Virus record (IMG/VR): IMGVR_UViG_3300028792_000003 | Coordinates: 1-64,000 of that record | Length of the DNA stretch: 64,000 nt | Direction: 5' to 3' (one strand) | From: a virus | Lineage: Duplodnaviria; Caudoviricetes | In this document: piece after piece, positions 21,760-53,710 of the stretch | Layout of the letters: each line of letters starts with the position of its first letter | Numbering within the stretch: the stretch's first letter is position 1 | Notes under the pieces: model-generated | Seen by the model: the letters and a program-made list of their open reading frames with translations, nothing else | Databases searched by the model: none | What the model was told of the DNA's origin: nothing | Program-made: the position numbers and the translations under genes

Positions 21760-22356
21760 CTACCCCTGCGCCTTCTTCGCCGCCTTCTTCGCGGCACGGG
21801 TCGCGGCAGCCTTGGAGGCCGGGGTCGGCTCACGGAGCACCCAGGTCTGCTCGATGGTGTAGCCACGAGCCATCAGCCGGTGCACCAGCCCGGACATCAG
21901 CGCCGGGGCGTTGACCGGCTTGCCGTCCGTGGACTTGATCGTCTTGGCCACCTTGGCGGCGACCTCCGCACGGGACGAACCGCCTTCCAGCATCAGGTTG
22001 ACGATGGTTTCCGAGTTGGAGCCCTTCACGAAGCCGTGCTCGTTCATGTCCCGGGGCAGCGACCGGCCAGAGGTGCCCTTGGCGACCTTCTTGGTGGGGC
22101 GCTTCTTCGCGGTCGTGGTGCTGGCCTTCTTGACCGAGCGCTTCTTGGCCGGAGCCGTCTTGGCAGGAGCAGTCGTCTTGGCCGCAGCCTTCTTGACGGT
22201 GTGCTTCTTCTTCTTGGGGGTGACCACTGCCGGAGCACCAGCAGCGGTGTCGTCACCCTTGGCCGAGAACTCCACTGACGGGGCGATCTTCTTCTTCGCG
22301 GTCTTCTTCGCCGGGCGCTTCTTGGGAGCCGGTCCGACCTTCTTGGCAGGTGCCAT
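21760..22356 (-). CDS. Histone H1-like Lys/Ala-rich DNA-binding protein with a globular C-terminal domain
   Basis: PAKK/AKK repeats; ATG at 22356 with AGAGG SD and a promoter-like sequence upstream. Confidence 0.75.
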   Translation of the reverse strand: MAPAKKVGPAPKKRPAKKTAKKKIAPSVEFSAKGDDTAAGAPAVVTPKKKKHTVKKAAAKTTAPAKTAPAKKRSVKKASTTTAKKRPTKKVAKGTSGRSLPRDMNEHGFVKGSNSETIVNLMLEGGSSRAEVAAKVAKTIKSTDGKPVNAPALMSGLVHRLMARGYTIEQTWVLREPTPASKAAATRAAKKAAKKAQG

Positions 22357-44838: not shown

Positions 44839-46572
44839 ATGCCGCTCAACCTGCGTGACATCGCCAAGGCCGCGAATAACAACGACACGGTGATGACTCC
44901 ACTGATCCAGGACTGGTTGCTACAGCACGGAGACGAGGAGTACGACCGGCACATCGCTGACTGGATCAGGGATCAACTGGTCACCAAGCCCCGGAACAGG
45001 TCCGCATCGTTCAGCGCGTCTTCTGCGGGAGGTTGCCCTCGTGCGCAGCAGTTGCAGTACCTGGGTATCCGGGGACTTGACTCGGTGGACGTGCGGTTGC
45101 AGAACATCTTCAACGACGGCAAGTGGCGTCACCTCCGCTGGCAGGCGATGTCGTTCATGGCAGAAGCACTGACCAAGGCCGAGATGCCGTTGTTCTGGCG
45201 CAACATGCGGTCCAGAGGGACCATCGACGGCTACGGCATCGTTCCTGACGATCACCCGCGTGCACTGTGGCGCGGGATGGACTACGGCTTCGAGTTGAAG
45301 GGTATGAACCCCTTCGGCTACCAGAAGGCGATCAAGGGCGACCCGGAGATGAAGCATGAACACAAGTTGCAGGTGCATCGGTACTTCCTGATGGGCGGCT
45401 TCGACCTGTTCGTGATCATCTACGAGAACAAGGGTTGTGTTCCTGAATACACGCGTTGCATGACCCGACGTGGCTGGACATATCACTACGACCTCGTTGA
45501 TGGTGACGAGATTCTGACCTACAACATGGAGCAAGATTGCATGGAGTGGGAGCCATATCAGAACAAAGTTGTCTACGAAGCAGACAGCGCTCCTTTGTAT
45601 CGTGTTGGCAACAAGCACCAGGAGTTCGTCACTACACGCGATCATCGCTGGGCTGTGCGAGACCAACAAGGCAACATGTCAGTGCGACGTACCGATCAAC
45701 TGAATTCAAACAGTTGGGTGCCGTTCCACGCTCCTTACGAGCAGAAGTCATCTGTCTGTACACCGTATGAGGCGGAAGCGATTGGCTGGGTCGCTTCAGA
45801 TGGCTGGATCAGCGACCACAAGTGGTACACCATCGCTCAATCGAAACCCGAAGGGACCAAGGCTCTCGATGCTTTGCTAGAGCCTACCGATCTGAACGTG
45901 CAGGGGCCGTACGACGGCATGTATTACTACTACCTGAAGGGGCCGTTGCGCAGCAGGCTGAGAGAACTGCTTCCGACCAAAGACCACTTGCCCTCCCTAG
46001 TAACGCGAATGGATCGTCCTGCCTTAGAGGCGTTCGTGCGCGGTTGCTTGGGAGGTGACGGGTCATGGGCACCTACTGGTATGGAATTGCAGTTCTGCCA
46101 GAACGATGGCTTGGTCAAGGAAGCCTTCCAGATCGCCTGTACCTTGTTGGGAATTAGATACAACATCAACGAAGGCAAGTTGAGTGGCTATCTTGGTAAC
46201 CGTCGTTGGATGCGCACTTACACTTCCGTTGCTCTCCCGCAATACGAACGAGTGTGGTGTCCCAAGACGACCAACGGTTTCTGGCTCATGGAGCAGAACG
46301 GCAAGGCCGTCATCACAGGCAACACCCAGGAATGGCACGAGTGGGTGATCGAGCCAGACGACGAGTACCTGGAAATGTCGCAGGCAGAACTCGAACTCCT
46401 CAACGACGGGATCGACAACCAGCGACTGGCCCCGGTACTGAACCAGTGCAAGGTTCACACCGGGCAGTTCAAGGAGTGCACGTTCGGGATGCAGCCGGGT
46501 AACTCCCCGTGCCTTCGGGCAGGACGCTGGCCGAACATCCAGACCAGCAAGAGCAAGAAGGGCAGTAAGTGA
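44839..46572 (+). CDS. Cas4-like PD-(D/E)xK exonuclease containing an intein
   Basis: 'SASS...CPR', 'G...H', 'GTIDG', 'ELK', 'Q...Y', C-terminal Cys cluster. Confidence 0.8.
   Translation: MPLNLRDIAKAANNNDTVMTPLIQDWLLQHGDEEYDRHIADWIRDQLVTKPRNRSASFSASSAGGCPRAQQLQYLGIRGLDSVDVRLQNIFNDGKWRHLRWQAMSFMAEALTKAEMPLFWRNMRSRGTIDGYGIVPDDHPRALWRGMDYGFELKGMNPFGYQKAIKGDPEMKHEHKLQVHRYFLMGGFDLFVIIYENKGCVPEYTRCMTRRGWTYHYDLVDGDEILTYNMEQDCMEWEPYQNKVVYEADSAPLYRVGNKHQEFVTTRDHRWAVRDQQGNMSVRRTDQLNSNSWVPFHAPYEQKSSVCTPYEAEAIGWVASDGWISDHKWYTIAQSKPEGTKALDALLEPTDLNVQGPYDGMYYYYLKGPLRSRLRELLPTKDHLPSLVTRMDRPALEAFVRGCLGGDGSWAPTGMELQFCQNDGLVKEAFQIACTLLGIRYNINEGKLSGYLGNRRWMRTYTSVALPQYERVWCPKTTNGFWLMEQNGKAVITGNTQEWHEWVIEPDDEYLEMSQAELELLNDGIDNQRLAPVLNQCKVHTGQFKECTFGMQPGNSPCLRAGRWPNIQTSKSKKGSK
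45436..46323 (+). mobile_element. Intein (296 aa) with LAGLIDADG endonuclease and Gly-Asn C-terminus
   Basis: Starts CVPEYT; 'TRDHRW'; 'IGWVASDG' and 'RGCLGGDG'; ends 'VWCPKTTNGF...ITGN'; +1 residue Thr; more AT-rich than its flanks. Confidence 0.9.
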
Positions 46573-47684: not shown

Positions 47685-48242
47685 ATGAGCAACACCGTGG
47701 TGAGAACTGTCGTCATAGGCATTGACCCTTCGTCCAAGAAGATCGCCGCCACTGTCACAGTCAACGGAGCGGAACCAACCCTGCGTATCAGGCCGCTGCC
47801 CACCGGCAGGCGAGACACGCCCCGGCAGTTGTTTCTGGCCGGTCGCTGGTTCCGCCGACTCATCATGGAGTTCGACCCGCAGAGCAATGACGTATATGTC
47901 TACATCGAGAACCCGTTCGTGTCTCCGAAGACGATCCGGGCATGCCTGCCACTGGCCCGGATGCACGGACATCTGATGGCCACCGCTTACGCATGTGGAG
48001 TCAAGGTCGTTGACGGGGTGGACATCAGCCGGTGGAAGTCGGTTTCCATCGGCAAGGGCAACGCATCCAAGACGGAGATCATGGCGTGGGTGCGCAAGTG
48101 CTGGCCCCAGGCCGCAGAGCAGGTCGGCAAGGACCAGGACAAGGCAGACTCGGCTGGGATCAACGTGTACGGCCAGCACATGGTGAAGCAGATCAAGAAG
48201 ATCGAACGACTGAAGGAGAAGAACAGTGCCGACCAAGGCTAG
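47685..48242 (+). CDS. RuvC-like Holliday junction resolvase
   Basis: 'VIGIDPS', 'YIE', 'WK....GKGNASK', 'D.ADS'. Confidence 0.85.
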   Translation: MSNTVVRTVVIGIDPSSKKIAATVTVNGAEPTLRIRPLPTGRRDTPRQLFLAGRWFRRLIMEFDPQSNDVYVYIENPFVSPKTIRACLPLARMHGHLMATAYACGVKVVDGVDISRWKSVSIGKGNASKTEIMAWVRKCWPQAAEQVGKDQDKADSAGINVYGQHMVKQIKKIERLKEKNSADQG

Positions 48243-49734
48243 TGGGACCAAGGGCAAGAAGAAGGACAGCGATCCTCAGTTCGCCATCATCAAGACCGAA
48301 CTCGTTCCGTTGGCAGACCTGCGGATGTACTACAAGAACCCCCGTGTCGGTAATGTCAACGAGGTGGCCAAGAGCCTGCACGTGAACAGCCAGTTCAAGC
48401 CGGTAGTTGTGAACGTTGGTACGCACACCGGGCGGGACAACGAGATCCTGGCTGGCAACCACACGTTCAAGGCCGCTGGCAAGGAACTCCAGTGGGTCGA
48501 GGACGGCGAGACCTACGAGAAGCCCACCTGGACGCATATCTGGGCGTCGTTCGTAGACGTGGACGAGGACGCTGCCAAGCGCATCGTGCTCGCTGACAAC
48601 GCGACTGCCGACAAGGGCGAGTACGACGAGAAGTTGCGAGCGGAACTCCTGCTGGACCTCCCGAACGTCAGTGGTACCGGCTACACCCTGGACGAGTTCG
48701 AGGACATCAAGGCCGACTTCGGTGACTTCGGTGACGACATCGACTTGTCCGAGGACGGCGAAGACCTCGAATCCATGATGGACGACGAGGACTACGAGGA
48801 GCAGCCCAAGGGAAAGCGGTTCGCGGACACCGAACTTGGCGACGAGATCGACGCCGAGGAGGACGAGTCTCCGATCAGCAACCGCGAGCGGCTGAAGATC
48901 AAGGAAGAGACCGGCATCGACATCGCCAAGCAGTCGGAGGAACTCGGTGGTGTCCTCCAGTTGGACGACTCGCCGTTCTTCGACTACGTGAAGGTCGGTA
49001 CCGGCGAACTCCAGTTCCAGTTGCCCCGGTACCTTCCCGAGATGTTGGTGCAGACGTCCGACCTGCCGGAGAAGTGGTCGGCCTGGGCGGGTAGCGCCAC
49101 CCGGGACAAGCCGGAGAACGAAGACCCCGATCACTGGTGGCTCTACAACTACGGGGTGGACAGCACTTCCGGCATGGAGCACGTCGCCAACTCGTTCGTG
49201 TCCTTCTTCACCTTTGACGAGTACTTCGAGCGGTGGTGGGACGCTCCATCCAAGTACGTCGCCAAGTTGATCAATAGCAAGGTCAAGTACGCGGTCACGC
49301 CTGACTTCTCGTCGGTCAGCGAAATGGGCAACACGTTCTGCCTGTGGCAGATCTACCGGCAGATGTACCTGGGCCGGTACTTCCAGGAGGCGGGCATCAA
49401 GTTGCTGCCGCACGTGATCTGGCCGGATGGCGACATGGAGTTCCTGGAGAACATCACCCTGGCTGCCCTGCCGGACGAGGTTCCGGTGCTGATGCTCCAG
49501 TTGCAGACCATTGACGAGAAGAACGTCGCGGGTGGCATCCAGCACTTCAAGGACCAGGTGCAGAAGATCATCAAGACGGTCAACCCCGAGACGCTCGTCG
49601 TCTACGCGGGCAAGCCGGGGCTGGAGTTCGTCCAGTCGCTCAACCTGCATGGCAGCGACCTGCGGTGGCTGAACACCCGGCAGGCCGCACTGTCGGAGTC
49701 CATGAAGGGCCGCACCAAGAAGACCGGCCTCTGA
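48226..49734 (+). CDS. ParB/Srx-like N-domain fused to a DUF4417-like domain
   Basis: 'KNPR....VAKSL...F.P.VV...ILAGNH' and 'LADN' (ParB); 'FF..D..FER.W', 'TPDFS', 'WQIYR...Y.Q..GI' (DUF4417). Confidence 0.7.
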   Translation: MPTKASGTKGKKKDSDPQFAIIKTELVPLADLRMYYKNPRVGNVNEVAKSLHVNSQFKPVVVNVGTHTGRDNEILAGNHTFKAAGKELQWVEDGETYEKPTWTHIWASFVDVDEDAAKRIVLADNATADKGEYDEKLRAELLLDLPNVSGTGYTLDEFEDIKADFGDFGDDIDLSEDGEDLESMMDDEDYEEQPKGKRFADTELGDEIDAEEDESPISNRERLKIKEETGIDIAKQSEELGGVLQLDDSPFFDYVKVGTGELQFQLPRYLPEMLVQTSDLPEKWSAWAGSATRDKPENEDPDHWWLYNYGVDSTSGMEHVANSFVSFFTFDEYFERWWDAPSKYVAKLINSKVKYAVTPDFSSVSEMGNTFCLWQIYRQMYLGRYFQEAGIKLLPHVIWPDGDMEFLENITLAALPDEVPVLMLQLQTIDEKNVAGGIQHFKDQVQKIIKTVNPETLVVYAGKPGLEFVQSLNLHGSDLRWLNTRQAALSESMKGRTKKTGL

Positions 49735-49772
49735 TCAACAACACCATCCGCCAGTGGAAGGCAACTAACAAC

Positions 49773-50663
49773 ATGACGACGTTCAACAACATCGAAGAGT
49801 CACCCACCGGGAAGATCGGGCGGAAGAAGTCCGATGTCACCATCCTGGGGGTTCCGTTCGACCTCGCCAGTACCAACCACTCCGGTCAGCGAAATGCGCC
49901 GTACCGGATTAGGGATGCCGGGTTCTGGGACGAGGGCATGTACACCACCCAGCACGGCGTTGACCCGTTGCAGGCCCTGGAGGTGGTGGACGCCGGGGAC
50001 GTGGAGATCATCCCCGGAGACACTCTGGGCGGCTGGCAGGCCATCCAGGACGCCGCTGCGCAGATCTACGCCAACACCCGGTGCCTGATCAGTATCGGAG
50101 GGGACCACTCGATCACGGCGAAACTGCTGGCGGGCATCGTGTCCATCGAGCGTGACCCCGTGACGGTGTTCCACTTCGACGCGCACTGGGACTACTGGCA
50201 GCACGACGCCGGGGTGGAGATGAACCACGGCACCTGGGTCCGCTACGTCATCGACAACGGGCTGGCCAACCGGGTGGTCCAGTTCGGGGTACGAGGCTGG
50301 GGCGTCCCCAAGACCGATGCCGCGTGGGCCGTGAAGAACGACATCACCACGTACCACGCTTCCAGCCGGTGGATGGACAGCCTGGTCGCGGAGATCAAGG
50401 ACACCAGCGACCCGATCTACCTGTCCATCGACGTGGACGTGCTGGACCCGGCGTTCGCTCCGGGGGTCGCCTATCAGGAGCCGGGCGGTTGGACCACCAG
50501 AGAACTCTTCGGTGCGATCAAGGCCGTCGCAGGTTCGGGGAAGATGATCGGTGCCGACGTGGTGGAGGTGATCCCCGACCGCGATCCCACCGGGCAGACG
50601 GTGAAGGTGGCCAACAGATGCGTTGCTCAGTTGCTCACCAGCATCGCCGCTACCCGGAAGTGA
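49773..50663 (+). CDS. speB: Agmatinase-like ureohydrolase
   Basis: 'GVPFD', 'DAGD', 'GGDHS', 'FDAHWD', 'HGT', 'SIDVDVLDPAFAPG', 'DVVEV.P'; all metal ligands present. Confidence 0.85.
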   Translation: MTTFNNIEESPTGKIGRKKSDVTILGVPFDLASTNHSGQRNAPYRIRDAGFWDEGMYTTQHGVDPLQALEVVDAGDVEIIPGDTLGGWQAIQDAAAQIYANTRCLISIGGDHSITAKLLAGIVSIERDPVTVFHFDAHWDYWQHDAGVEMNHGTWVRYVIDNGLANRVVQFGVRGWGVPKTDAAWAVKNDITTYHASSRWMDSLVAEIKDTSDPIYLSIDVDVLDPAFAPGVAYQEPGGWTTRELFGAIKAVAGSGKMIGADVVEVIPDRDPTGQTVKVANRCVAQLLTSIAATRK

Positions 50664-50795
50664 CCGGGAAGTCAACGCACTGATTCAACGTGTCGTGGAA
50701 GACGCGTGTCGGGTTCCTTGTACGGTGGTGCGCCACAGGAGAAACTTGCACCAGTTGTTACGGCGAACCCCGTCGTACCCCGAAAGGAGAAAGTC

Positions 50796-51131
50796 GTGAT
50801 CGAGGACTTCATGCTCGACACCGACGACGACGCGCTCGTCGTTTCCGGCGCTGCCACTCGTGGTGGCGGTGGTGGTGGTTCCGCCAAGAAGGCTGCCAAG
50901 CGTGGTGGCGGTACTCGTGCCCGCAAGGCCGCGAAGAAGACCACGGCCCGTCGTGGTGGCTCCACTGCCAAGAAGACGGCCAAGAAGGCTGCCAAGAAGG
51001 TCGGTCGCGCTCCGGCTCGTCCCGCCAAGAAGGCCGCGAAGAAGGTCGGTCGTCCCGTCAAGCGGACCGCCGCCAAGAAGGTCGCCAAGAAGGCCGTGAA
51101 GAAGACCGCTCGCCCCCGCAAGCGGGCTTGA
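50796..51131 (+). CDS. Histone/protamine-like basic protein with a short acidic leader
   Basis: GAAAGGAG SD and GTG start; 'MIEDFMLDTDDDALVVSGAATRGGGGGG' followed by AKK repeats. Confidence 0.8.
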   Translation: MIEDFMLDTDDDALVVSGAATRGGGGGGSAKKAAKRGGGTRARKAAKKTTARRGGSTAKKTAKKAAKKVGRAPARPAKKAAKKVGRPVKRTAAKKVAKKAVKKTARPRKRA

Positions 51132-51164
51132 TCCACCGGCACCATCGCAATACCGCACCCACGA

Positions 51165-51204
51165 GAAGGGCGCTCTGGCCTAGCAACAGCCGGAGCGCCC
51201 TTCC
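51165..51204 (+). terminator. Terminator-like hairpin
   Basis: GAAGGGCGCTC...GAGCGCCCTTC followed by CTCTTT. Confidence 0.55.
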
Positions 51205-51233
51205 TCTTTCCCTAGTGAAGAAAGACGAACAAC

Positions 51234-51638
51234 ATGACCAACATCAGACACGAGGAAGCGCTGGACGCCATGTTCGTGCTTCCGCCTGAACTACTGGAGC
51301 AGTTCGGGCCGGACGACACCCACGAGCGCTGTGCCGTTCTGCTGGGCCACCGGGACCGGGGCAAGTTCGTGATCACCGACGTTGTGGAGGTCGCCAACGA
51401 CGCGACGGACACCACGTCCACGTTCGCCATCAAGGCGGGCTCGATCAAGCGTGCGGTGCGCAAGGGCCGGGGGGTCTTCCTCGGCGTGCTGCACACACAC
51501 TGGGAATCGACCACCTACCCGTCGATCAACGACGTGCAGAACATCCCGCGTGGCTGGATCGGCTGCGTGCTCCACACCAAGACAAGAACAATCACTTACT
51601 ACACCCGCTCTGGGTACGTGACGGAGGTTCACCCCTGA
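51234..51638 (+). CDS. JAB/MPN+ (JAMM) metalloprotease
   Basis: 'ERCAVLLG' and 'HTH.......S..D' (HTHWESTTYPSIND) JAMM motif. Confidence 0.85.
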   Translation: MTNIRHEEALDAMFVLPPELLEQFGPDDTHERCAVLLGHRDRGKFVITDVVEVANDATDTTSTFAIKAGSIKRAVRKGRGVFLGVLHTHWESTTYPSINDVQNIPRGWIGCVLHTKTRTITYYTRSGYVTEVHP

Positions 51639-52552
51639 TGCAGAAGACCGAGTACAAGAACGGTGAGGACTGGGTTAAGTTCAGCGTCCCCGACGAGGAC
51701 GGGGAGCCAGAGCAGTGGATGGTCCAGTCCAACTTCCTGCTGTCGAACTGGACGTGCATCTACGGACAGGGGTGCCCGGGTCTGACTCCCGCAAACGAGA
51801 ACCGCTACTTCGATGACATCGGCTGTTGCAAGTTGGGGTTCTGGTTCACCGACATCGAGGACTACGAGAAGGTCGAGAAGCAGATCAAGAACCTGTCCAA
51901 AGAGGACTGGGACGACGAACTGCGTCAGTACGTTGACAAGAACGGCTGGGCGAACATCTACAGCATCGACCGGGACAACGACGAGATCAACGGCAAGTCG
52001 AAGGTCACCGACTTCGGGTGTGTGTTCGCCAACCGCAACACGGGCAGCGTCGGATCGACCGGCAAGACCGGATGCGCGTTCCACCACCTCGCCGCCAGGA
52101 CCGGCCAGGACCACGTGGACGTGATGCCCCAGGTCTGCTGGCAGTTGCCCATCAAGTACGAGTTCGATGACGACAACGACCGGCACGTCATTCAGCCCTG
52201 GACCGTGGACCAGTGGGGCGGGGAGGACGAGGAAGGCTCACACGACCACATCATGTGCTGGTGGTGCACAGAGACGCCCGACGCCTACGTGGGCAGCAAG
52301 CCTGTGCTGGCAGCCATGGAGCACGAACTCCGGGAGATCATGGGCGACACGGCGTACGACGAGATGGTCCGGGTGCTGAACGCCCGACCCAAGCCCGCAC
52401 CGATGCCGGGGTCCGTCACCAACGACGGCAGGCCGATGATCCCGCTGCTGATCGGCAACCGGGAACCGTACAAGGCACCATCGGCAACCAGCACTCCCGC
52501 AGTGATGAAGAAGATGAAGGAGACCGGCAATGTCGTCGTCCCAGGTTCCTAG
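51638..52552 (+). CDS. Cys-rich DUF3109/YkgJ-like putative Fe-S or Zn protein
   Basis: 'C....C', 'GCC', 'CVF', 'GCAFH', 'P.VCWQLP', 'CWWC'; TGATG-coupled to the JAB gene. Confidence 0.65.
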   Translation: MQKTEYKNGEDWVKFSVPDEDGEPEQWMVQSNFLLSNWTCIYGQGCPGLTPANENRYFDDIGCCKLGFWFTDIEDYEKVEKQIKNLSKEDWDDELRQYVDKNGWANIYSIDRDNDEINGKSKVTDFGCVFANRNTGSVGSTGKTGCAFHHLAARTGQDHVDVMPQVCWQLPIKYEFDDDNDRHVIQPWTVDQWGGEDEEGSHDHIMCWWCTETPDAYVGSKPVLAAMEHELREIMGDTAYDEMVRVLNARPKPAPMPGSVTNDGRPMIPLLIGNREPYKAPSATSTPAVMKKMKETGNVVVPGS

Positions 52553-52735
52553 TCCCGCAGACGATGCCGCCAAGAAGCGGATGGCGGCACTGACACTCGC
52601 GGTGCTGCACCACGCATCGTCCAACCTGGCAGAAAGGGCTGTCCCTCCGGGGTGGCAGACCGTCGTGGACACCGCCGACGGGTTCCTGGACTACATCAAC
52701 ACCGGCAACAAGCCGCAGCAGACAAGAGGAAGGCG

Positions 52736-53200
52736 ATGATCATCACCATGGCCGAGCAGCACTGGCACGACCACGAGACGGAGCACACCACCCTCTACGG
52801 CCAGTTGGTCTGTCCTACCAACTGTCATTACGCCGGAAAGGACAGATTGTGGGAGACGGACATTGACGAACTGAAGGAGTGCGTCGCTGCTGCCCGTCAT
52901 CTTCGTCCGACCAAGCACACAAGAAGTCAGTGCTTGACGGCAAGGTTCGACCCACGTCCGGCGGAAGAGCAGCAACCTGACCTGGTTAACCACCCGCCGC
53001 ACTACACCGGGAACGCCAACGGGGTCGAGTGCATCGACGTCGTGGAAGACCTGGGGTTCTGCATCGGCAACGCGATCAAGTACCTGTGGCGTGCCGACGA
53101 GAAGGACAACGCGCTCCAGGATCTACAGAAGGCGCGCTGGTACATCGACCGGGAGATCAACCGCCGCGAACGCCGCCAGTCTGGCGATAGCGGCAAGTAG
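52736..53200 (+). CDS. DUF3310 (SaV-like) protein
   Basis: 'VNHP.HY...ECID...FC.GNAIKYLWRA..K...DL.KA.WY'. Confidence 0.8.
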   Translation: MIITMAEQHWHDHETEHTTLYGQLVCPTNCHYAGKDRLWETDIDELKECVAAARHLRPTKHTRSQCLTARFDPRPAEEQQPDLVNHPPHYTGNANGVECIDVVEDLGFCIGNAIKYLWRADEKDNALQDLQKARWYIDREINRRERRQSGDSGK

Positions 53201-53260
53201 ACCAGCATCACTCAATAACAACCAATCATTCAACAACAACCAGTGGGGAGCCTTATCCAA

Positions 53261-53710
53261 ATGACTAGCACGAGCCTGATCGACACCAAGAGCCCGAACA
53301 AGACCGCCTGCGTGGACAACGGCAAGCACAAGTGGCAGGTCGCTCGCATCCGGGGCACCAAGGTCCGCCACCAGTGCGCCAAGTGCCTGCACATGGACAG
53401 GTGGGTCCAGACGGCCAACTCCGGCAAGGTCACCGTCCAGAAGAACAGCAAGCCGCAGCCCGTGAACGCCACCAAGCAGAACTCCTTCACGGACGAGCCG
53501 GGGAAGGTCACCAAGTTGACCGGTTCCAACTCGGTGCACGAGCACCTCGGTGACAGCACGTCGCAGATCTTCAAGGACTACGCCGCCACGTTGACCGTCA
53601 CGGAGTTGCGCGAGAAGGCCAAGAAGCACGGCCTGACCGGCTACTCGAAGATGAAGAAGGACGACCTGATCACGGCCCTCACCACGGCGCAGCCCGTGCA
53701 GACGGCCTAG
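53261..53710 (+). CDS. Zn-ribbon + Rho-N-terminal-like domain protein
   Basis: 'TVTELREKAKKHGLTGYSKMKKDDLITAL'. Confidence 0.65.
   Translation: MTSTSLIDTKSPNKTACVDNGKHKWQVARIRGTKVRHQCAKCLHMDRWVQTANSGKVTVQKNSKPQPVNATKQNSFTDEPGKVTKLTGSNSVHEHLGDSTSQIFKDYAATLTVTELREKAKKHGLTGYSKMKKDDLITALTTAQPVQTA

Follow-up and report, generated by a model that had tools for sequence, protein, structure and literature searches.

We analysed a 64,000-nucleotide stretch of phage DNA (the window), which is the first 64 kb of the 91.8-kb IMG/VR virus record IMGVR_UViG_3300028792_000003, rated as complete by CheckV. Our subject is a run of five genes in it, encoding a ParB-DUF4417 fusion, an arginase-family enzyme, a small and very basic protein, a stand-alone JAMM metalloprotease (JAB) and an eight-cysteine protein of the Rv0495c/DUF3109 family (hereafter the Cys protein). 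The JAB gene is the hub of two separable partnerships, one with the basic protein and the other with the Cys protein, because each partner is also found without the other. The cassette belongs to Bendigovirus/Cantarevirus-like actinophages. Our preferred reading, held tentatively and at somewhat less than an even chance, is that the JAMM protease cuts the basic protein at a conserved junction and frees a polycation that binds DNA, the agmatinase-like enzyme playing an accessory part. That a virus may mature a basic protein with a protease of its own is already known from adenoviruses and T4, to which this would be analogous. Literature searches on DUF4417, DUF3109, Rv0495c and DpdA/DpdB returned no description of this gene combination, nor of the junction motif, the arginase fusion or the transglycosylase-like DUF4417 fold presented below.

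Two separable partnerships of the JAB gene

Pfam and phrog profiles together with motif inspection bore out the positions, plus-strand orientation and family assignments given to the five genes by a first-pass annotation, made without database searches (Table 1). That annotation had read them as one candidate system, to be judged by its recurrence in related phages. We therefore compared 18 phage loci, 17 of them with DNA (window included) and one known as a gene table alone, which were drawn from a phage collection, IMG/VR and public assemblies and typed with jackhmmer and by eye. The basic protein, JAB and the Cys protein recur together in 14 of these loci (the window, GMA6, Gray, L005, L006, L007, L011-L014, L033-L035 and the P0102 contig), which are divergent, with Cys-protein identity falling to ~35%. 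Gene order among them is either JAB-Cys or Cys-JAB, the latter in Gray, L011, L034 and L035. As a single five-gene system the block stands only in part: the linkage recurs, but the Cys protein, the basic protein and the arginase are each missing from some loci.

JAB adjoins a motif-bearing basic protein in every one of the 16 loci that have that protein (16/18 overall; the window, L001, L002, L005-L007, L011-L014, L033-L035, L037, L038 and the P0102 contig), and it is accompanied by the eight-Cys protein in 16/18. In Brevibacterium phage Cantare and in L038, the basic protein and JAB are present and the Cys protein is absent; the adjacency of JAB and the basic protein thus persists without the Cys protein, as it does when the order becomes Cys-JAB. 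The reverse case is found in L016 and L017, which keep JAB and the Cys protein and have no basic protein, ParB or arginase. These are far more distant phages (Cys protein 26% identical; guanine-plus-cytosine (GC) content 44% and 56%), in which the JAB-Cys pair lies between lysis and terminase genes, with the Cys and JAB genes convergent and overlapping.

The persistence of the JAB-Cys pair at such a distance, at a different GC content and in convergent orientation, argues against conserved synteny as the sole explanation, as does the survival of the JAB-basic adjacency through changes in gene order. Under that explanation, the replication/recombination arm of a single phage lineage would house several independent functions side by side, with RuvC and ParB-DUF4417 processing DNA, the agmatinase as an auxiliary enzyme, the basic protein as a nucleoid binder, JAB, and the Cys protein as a redox helper. 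We consider it unlikely, yet a serious contender, since the genes of the region are all co-directional, a terminator splits the block, the components drop out independently, the ParB and Cys-protein trees disagree on the arginase carriers in a manner indicative of mosaic exchange, and cellular Rv0495c homologues stand alone, with no JAB alongside. An in-frame fusion of arginase to the basic protein in one locus (L012, described below) is hard to explain without a functional link.

L016 (2751-3035) and L017 (5746-6048) also encode, upstream, putative holin-like membrane proteins that end in short AKK/PAKK tails; these tails do not contain the motif of the junction, and a relationship to the basic protein is unlikely.

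Table 1. Coordinates of the genes and elements discussed, in window positions
Feature	Position	Strand	Remarks
RuvC-like Holliday junction resolvase	47685..48242	+	phrog_159 2.8e-15; conserved upstream neighbour, context only
ParB-DUF4417 fusion, 502 aa	48226..49734	+	N-terminal ParB-fold domain, acidic linker, C-terminal DUF4417
DUF4417 domain	48898..49731	+	modelled (beta/alpha)8 TIM barrel; best solved matches in the tRNA-guanine transglycosylase family
Arginase-family ureohydrolase, agmatinase-like, 296 aa	49773..50663	+	PF00491 2.5e-68
Shine-Dalgarno-like GAAAGGAG	50782..50789	+	6 nt upstream of the basic-gene GTG start; read from sequence
Basic protein (putative pro-protein), 111 aa	50796..51131	+	acidic N-terminal piece, junction motif, Gly6 run, K/R/A tail; relatives in 15 other loci
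Junction LVVSGAA then TRGGGGGG	50835..50879	+	proposed JAMM cleavage region; motif conserved at acid/basic boundary in relatives
Terminator-like element	51165..51212	+	15-bp GC-rich hairpin (51165-51203), then pyrimidine-rich CUCUUUCCC; 3' of basic gene
Stand-alone JAMM/MPN+ metalloprotease (JAB), 134 aa	51234..51638	+	Prok-JAB PF14464 1.1e-8
Rv0495c/DUF3109-family eight-Cys metalloprotein, 304 aa	51638..52552	+	eight invariant Cys; phage-type C-terminal extension

The basic protein and its proposed processing

The 111-residue product of the third gene had been described as a lysine/arginine/alanine (K/R/A) polymer with an acidic leader, which its composition confirms. Residues 1-21 have a net charge of -6 and a pI of 4.05, and the remaining 90 residues have a net charge of +37, a pI of 12 and no acidic residue, with K, R and A making up 66%. 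In its composition the tail fits the low-complexity tails of Histone H1 and protamine-like proteins, from which DNA binding is predicted. Relatives usually consist of an acidic stretch, the motif, a glycine-rich run and a K/R/A tail, and conservation among them is confined to the junction. This reads [VILFM][VFA]x[ESG]G[AS][GA], with LVVSGAA in the window and VVEGAG, VFAEGAG, LFSGAG and MFSGAR as other examples.

The part before the junction varies widely: it has 3-5 residues in L038 and Cantare, ~14-30 in most loci and ~70-100 in L007 and L006. In L012 its place is taken by an entire arginase domain, whose ligands are intact, and an acidic linker, all within a single 460-residue open reading frame (ORF); the same protein is listed by three sources (P0157). 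Since this part ranges from nearly nothing to a whole enzyme, it has the character of a neutral linker or of a pro-region that can be removed. The acidic leader as a charge-neutralising inhibitor was rejected as a general rule, given the 3-5 residues before the motif in Cantare and L038.

JAB has the full set of zinc-site residues expected of an active enzyme of its family, an upstream Glu followed by HxH-x7-S-xx-D (E...HxH...S..D), of which E31, H87, H89, S97 and D100 are invariant in 13 divergent sequences; with the Prok-JAB match this upholds the initial call of a JAMM protease. Among solved structures, its family profile came nearest to small stand-alone prokaryotic MPN proteins, namely the bacterial 2kks (7.9e-9) and 2kcq, and to PfJAMM1 (5lda, 1.2e-7). 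In its size (~130 residues) and complete E-HxH-S-D site, the window JAB resembles PfJAMM1/desampylase (5LDA) and Cap3 of the cyclic oligonucleotide-based antiphage signalling system (CBASS). Its setting differs from theirs: no ubiquitin-like beta-grasp gene, E1 or E2 was found in its neighbourhood, and instead of a beta-grasp domain the proposed substrate has a disordered motif with a Gly run after it.

JAB also matched the PADLOC JAB models of defence systems (6.6e-7) and, weakly, the NCBIfam Cap3 model (NF050170, 8.6e-4). These matches would suit an anti-defence deconjugase that mimics CBASS Cap3 or a Bil isopeptidase, next to an unrelated basic protein that binds the nucleoid or lies inside the capsid and is cut, if at all, by another protease. 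We regard this as the least probable of the explanations considered here. The Cap3 score of 19.6 bits is far under the cut-off of 200, no curated equivalog cut-off was reached by JAB, no CBASS genes were found near it, and its strict adjacency to the motif-bearing protein and to the Cys protein would be left unexplained.

JAMM enzymes cleave after Gly-Gly and normally recognise a beta-grasp domain. Because the glycine-rich junction sits beside an always-adjacent JAMM gene whose catalytic residues are always intact, the simplest reading is that JAB would process the basic protein at this junction. A comparable arrangement exists in the adenovirus precursors pVII and pre-Mu, cut by adenain, and in the T4 internal proteins IPI-III, cut by the gp21 prohead protease. 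Those viral core precursors are small, very basic and DNA-associated, and an N-terminal piece is removed from them at a short motif rich in small residues by a virus-encoded protease. The maturation proposed here differs in two respects: the part of the protease would fall to a JAMM metalloenzyme in place of a cysteine or serine prohead protease, and the genes lie in the replication arm and not in the head module.

The basic gene appears to form a unit of its own. The window intergenic region 3' of it folds at -36.2 kcal/mol (z -4.55), which none of 200 shuffles equalled, and an equivalent strong hairpin, mostly followed by a U-run, was present in 13/13 relatives tested (z -2.6 to -6.8) regardless of the next gene, so that 14/14 loci including the window have a terminator-like hairpin at this place. 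A gap of 70-140 nt lies upstream of the gene in most loci. We infer from its own ribosome-binding site, this gap and the hairpin that the basic gene is probably a self-contained, highly expressed unit, with the JAB and Cys genes downstream expressed at a lower level. Readthrough from the arginase into the basic gene, for which the shared reading frame in the window would allow, was rejected, as the frames differ in L005 and L006. On the minus strand of the window, 74 nt at 22276-22349 are 76% identical to the tail-coding part of the basic gene (50989-51060), probably a low-complexity resemblance.

Based on these observations we propose the following sequence of events. The basic gene would be expressed strongly as its own unit and would yield a pro-protein. 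In this protein a variable N-terminal piece leads into the hydrophobic-x-[E/S]-G-[A/S]-G junction, and a glycine-rich hinge connects the junction to a K/R/A tail of H1/protamine-like character. The JAMM1-like metalloprotease would most likely cut at the glycine-rich junction, in keeping with the Gly-Gly preference of its family, and the freed tail would coat or condense DNA, which could be that of the host nucleoid or that of the phage while it is replicated or packaged. The agmatinase-like enzyme is an optional add-on. It probably either converts host agmatine to putrescine, which would serve as a second counter-ion for DNA, or cooperates physically with the tail. The eight-Cys protein is the second conserved partner of the protease and may serve JAB or the host redox state in some way, and ParB-DUF4417 is a fixed upstream DNA-handling neighbour that need not belong to the cassette.

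Several points weigh against this mechanism. The cleavage site is a prediction based on the motif and on what is generally known of JAMM enzymes, and the substrate would be without the usual beta-grasp domain. Few residues precede the motif in Cantare and L038, and removal of an inhibitory acidic leader therefore cannot be the general purpose. The terminator puts the basic gene and the JAB gene into different transcription units. L016 and L017 retain JAB and the Cys protein without a motif-bearing basic protein, so JAB must have another role or substrate, and the changed metal ligands in some arginase relatives, detailed below, imply that polyamine synthesis is not a conserved requirement. Finally, one broad phage lineage supplies all the loci with the basic protein, and synteny can persist without shared function. 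Maturation of a histone-like protein nevertheless stands as the best-supported part of what the first-pass annotation proposed, with the cleavage itself predicted from the motif and from JAMM enzymes elsewhere.

If this mechanism holds, phages would have, in the protease-matured polycation, an equivalent of the basic core proteins that adenoviruses process, and a JAMM enzyme acting on a substrate that is not ubiquitin-like would widen the role of prokaryotic JAMM proteases. The module is present in cultured phages (Gordonia phages GMA6 and Gray with their relatives, and Brevibacterium phage Cantare) and is thus accessible at the bench.

Partner and neighbouring enzymes

The arginase-family gene occurs in 7/18 loci and is absent from 11/18. 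In agreement with its description as an intact ureohydrolase, the window enzyme matches PF00491 and retains all six metal ligands (the GGDHS His, D/H/D of DAHxD and the Asp pair of DxDxxDP) and the guanidinium-binding Glu; its ATG at 49773 agrees with the starts of homologues. It scored 168.5 bits against TIGR01230 (agmatinase SpeB equivalog), just below the cut-off of 174.3, and 172.7 against a cut-off of 302 for NF002564, and its best solved relatives are a guanidinobutyrase (3nio, 1.2e-36) and an agmatinase (4dz4). By sequence, the enzyme belongs to the agmatinase/guanidino-acid hydrolase branch; its substrate is uncertain, because the TIGR01230 cut-off was missed and a guanidinobutyrase is the best solved relative. 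The earlier suggestion that it supplies polyamine is plausible for this phage, whose copy has intact ligands, but it is no more than that: besides the missed cut-off, neither type of arginine decarboxylase was found in the phage genome, so agmatine would have to be derived from the host.

Some 20 clusters of close relatives of the enzyme, all ~297 residues long and at least 47% identical, make up a clade apart, beyond which identity drops to at most 40%; a 40% relative (P0102) lies in the same gene context. The association with the basic protein recurs throughout: the arginase gene is immediately 5' of the basic gene in 7/7 carrier loci, with the one in-frame fusion (L012) among them. Carriers are scattered on the Cys-protein tree yet form one well-supported ParB clade (100/100), which suggests that the ParB-arginase segment moves as a unit within a mosaic genome. 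Six relatives have altered metal ligands (P0091, P0097, P0099, P0101, L006 and L035). The GGDHS His is replaced by Gln in P0091, P0097, P0099 and P0101 and by Asp in L006 and L035; P0099 also has Arg for the DAHxD His and Ser for a DxD Asp, and the DxD motif is further changed from Asp to Ser in P0101 and from Asp to His in P0091. In view of these replacements, catalysis appears not always to be kept.

Phage-borne agmatinase-family genes have a precedent in speB of Microcystis phage MaAM05, whose product is 29% identical to the window arginase, and PBCV-1 has a virus-encoded polyamine pathway. Unlike these, the window arginase belongs to a clade of its own, has a fixed position before the basic gene and was once fused to it, and the ligands of its relatives are sometimes degenerate. 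That phages have a distinct clade of agmatinase-like enzymes, tied to a predicted DNA-binding protein and in some members apparently inactive, is a lead in its own right.

The Cys protein is translationally coupled to JAB, as had been noted, its ATG overlapping the JAB stop codon (TGATG). Its description as 'DUF3109/YkgJ-like' is borne out for DUF3109. In Pfam 38.1 it belongs to PF11307 (Rv0495c, formerly DUF3109), the family of Mycobacterium tuberculosis Rv0495c: PF11307.14 matched the window protein and all 78 homologues, and 30/30 of its ESM Atlas neighbours carry PF11307, although the older model PF11307.13 (DUF3109) had no match in the genome and a Pfam search at E up to 10 with the Cys protein and two cellular homologues returned nothing useful. 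Kinship with YkgJ is uncertain: the YkgJ/CxxCxxCC model PF03692 had no match in the genome at E up to 10, the first Cys motif reads C-x5-C-x16-CC against CxxxCxxCC for YkgJ, and hhalign of the Cys family with Escherichia coli YkgJ was not significant. The AlphaFold2 model (predicted local distance difference test score, 84.2) had no fold match among solved structures. Foldseek against BFVD returned the GMA6 homologue (8.7e-20), an unnamed phage protein (1e-4) and, weakly, a phage 'zinc- or iron-chelating domain' protein (E 0.057; the match probability reported by the program was 0.84). A structure-based complex test of the Cys protein with JAB scored 0.02 and gave no answer either way.

A second point of comparison is DpdM, which was assigned to DUF3109 by HHpred, has eight Cys that form two metal sites and methylates dPreQ1 in phage DNA (PMC10516641). 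PF11307 and the Cys-family alignment had no match in the record of Vibrio phage VH7D, whose DpdM we located through its Cys motif and aligned with four further homologues. All five sequences have eight invariant Cys in the same order as the window protein, which is reminiscent of the two metal sites described. hhalign of the Cys family against VH7D DpdM or the five-sequence alignment was not significant; with the latter, the program's match probability was 0.2%, and C128/C146/H149 were paired with C120/C129/H132. One of the DpdM homologues is of interest in itself. Mycobacterium phage Knocker (L042, L044; 1310-3876) encodes a protein, annotated as hypothetical, that is 30% identical to VH7D DpdM and lies between queuine tRNA-ribosyltransferase (DpdA-like) and QueC-like genes, beside a GTP cyclohydrolase I gene; judging by these genes, Knocker probably makes methylated dPreQ1.

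Cellular members of the Cys subfamily point elsewhere. Loss of Rv0495c disturbs the redox balance of M. tuberculosis (10.1101/2023.08.22.554105). A search for longer relatives found the Rv0495c/PF11307 domain fused to an HI0933-like flavin adenine dinucleotide-dependent flavoprotein (TIGR03862) in more than 30 cellular clusters (P0203-P0237) and to PAS-SpoIIE in one further cluster, and one stand-alone cellular copy lies between genes for superoxide dismutase and F420H2-dependent quinone reductase. On the basis of these fusions and neighbours, a redox or metal role seems likelier than methyl transfer in this subfamily. The flavoprotein fusions also bear on the biochemistry of a redox-homeostasis gene of M. 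tuberculosis and are a lead in that respect. Unlike cellular Rv0495c, which is stand-alone or fused to the HI0933-like flavoprotein, the phage copies are paired with JAB and share a C-terminal extension (PMPG...GRPxIPL) that most cellular copies do not have. A phage-type Cys protein, 49% identical and with the phage extension, is encoded on an Actinopolymorpha sp. contig (L008:7001-7909), where its neighbours are ordinary cellular genes and neither JAB nor phage genes lie close by; this sequence suggests transfer of the Cys gene between phage and host.

FliB, a YkgJ-superfamily relative, methylates primary amines (lysine), and the idea that the Cys protein is a lysine methylase, raised in the first pass, is weakened by the flavoprotein fusions of its cellular subfamily. 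The same fusions bear on a scheme in which the basic tail is itself the substrate, tailored in the manner of ribosomally synthesized and post-translationally modified peptides: the arginase would convert its Arg to ornithine and/or the Cys protein would N-methylate its Lys, and JAB would remove the leader. The leader-plus-core architecture beside a protease, the fusion of arginase to the would-be substrate in L012 and the methylation of primary amines by characterised YkgJ/DUF3109-superfamily relatives are in its favour. We nevertheless find it quite improbable, given that the arginase is closest to agmatinases and guanidino-acid hydrolases, that the Arg content of the tail does not track the presence of arginase and that the flavoprotein fusions point to redox and not methyl transfer.

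The first gene of the block was correctly recognised as a ParB-DUF4417-like fusion. Its N-terminal part matched the ParB profiles phrog_723 (1.4e-42), phrog_940 (5.2e-42) and phrog_6392 (9.3e-34), with PF02195 on record for relatives, and residues 321-470 matched DUF4417 (PF14386, 2.8e-21; 76.3 bits, cut-off 28.9). The ParB GxxR box reads AGNHT in the window protein, and nucleoside triphosphate binding by this domain is therefore uncertain. Full-length relatives occur in 14 loci. Phage records that cover at least 80% of the protein number 17 and are confined to this phage group, compared with 817 single-domain records; as single domains, DUF4417 and ParB are common in hundreds of actinophages. 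The relative in L038 (3519-5990) has 823 residues instead of ~500, probably because of an insertion, possibly an intein. A survey found ParB-DUF4417 to be among the commonest phage ParB fusions, with the same domain pair as here, and assigned DUF4417 no function, fold or role (10.1101/2025.10.10.680097).

The TIM barrel modelled for DUF4417, a new and predicted assignment, has its best fold matches in tRNA-guanine transglycosylases (TGT) and DpdA, the TGT family being ahead by ~1.5 Z. DpdA depends on DpdB, a ParB-fold ATPase (PMC10164549), for which reason ParB-DUF4417 could be an analogue of DpdB/DpdA, joining a ParB domain and a TGT-like barrel in one protein; we treat this model-based idea as a lead, not a finding. 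At the sequence level the DUF4417 domain showed no similarity to TGT: PF01702 (TGT) did not match it at E up to 10, hhalign with two phage DpdA sequences gave program probabilities below 1%, its profile matched nothing among PDB sequences, and the ESM Atlas returned no usable match for the domain. The phage genome also has no QueC, FolE or other preQ0 pathway genes. A possible TGT-like fold would be of wide interest, as DUF4417 is part of one of the commonest unexplained phage ParB fusions; if a base-exchange role were true, DUF4417, found in hundreds of actinophages, would be a new DNA transglycosylase family.

The proposal that the module attaches an amine to DNA thus has no direct support, but it does have two fold or family leads, the TGT/DpdA-like DUF4417 and the DUF3109 member DpdM. 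They could be combined in a DNA base-modification system, in which the fused DpdB/DpdA analogue would exchange a base, the DUF3109-type protein would modify it as DpdM does, the amidinohydrolase would act on an amine or guanidino substituent, preparing or trimming it, and the basic protein would keep the enzymes on DNA. This we judge improbable. TIM barrels are generic and the lead of the TGT family is small, no sequence-level link to TGT or DpdA was found in the searches above, hhalign of the Cys family with DpdM and YkgJ was not significant, and the QueC and FolE genes are missing; moreover, the Cys protein is absent from Cantare and L038, ParB-DUF4417 is absent from L016 and L017, and the two domains are common singly. 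A version in which ParB-DUF4417, the DUF3109-type metalloprotein and the amidinohydrolase install a novel amine-bearing base, with a JAMM-matured basic protein holding them on DNA, would be slightly less probable again.

Genome setting and flanking genes

A soil metagenome is the only sequencing run that contains the stretch and is probably its source sample. The window has a GC content of ~61%. Among cultured phages, its closest relatives are the Gordonia phages assigned to Bendigovirus (GMA6, Gray and others), together with Brevibacterium phage Cantare. A megablast search of the five-gene block against the phage collection gave zero matches.

From ~25 kb to 64 kb of the window, nearly all likely genes are on the plus strand, and the co-orientation of the five genes carries little weight because almost every gene of the genome has this orientation. 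The left edge of the block is not sharp. The end of the RuvC gene overlaps the start of ParB-DUF4417 by 17 nt, so the five genes are not a discrete operon; RuvC is likewise upstream in related loci. Within the block, the terminator-like hairpin after the third gene forms a further division.

Downstream of the block, the window encodes a DUF3310 protein (52652-53200, plus strand; PF11753, 5.1e-17) and a small protein (53243-53710, plus strand) whose C-terminal segment resembles the Rho_N domain that Pfam reports for its L005 counterpart; both are conserved beside the block in L005. Further upstream, a 577-residue ORF (44839-46572, plus strand) matches the Cas4/PD-(D/E)xK-like phage family phrog_1706 over its N-terminal 200 residues (2.4e-9), and its long central part, which has no match, may be an inserted element such as an intein.

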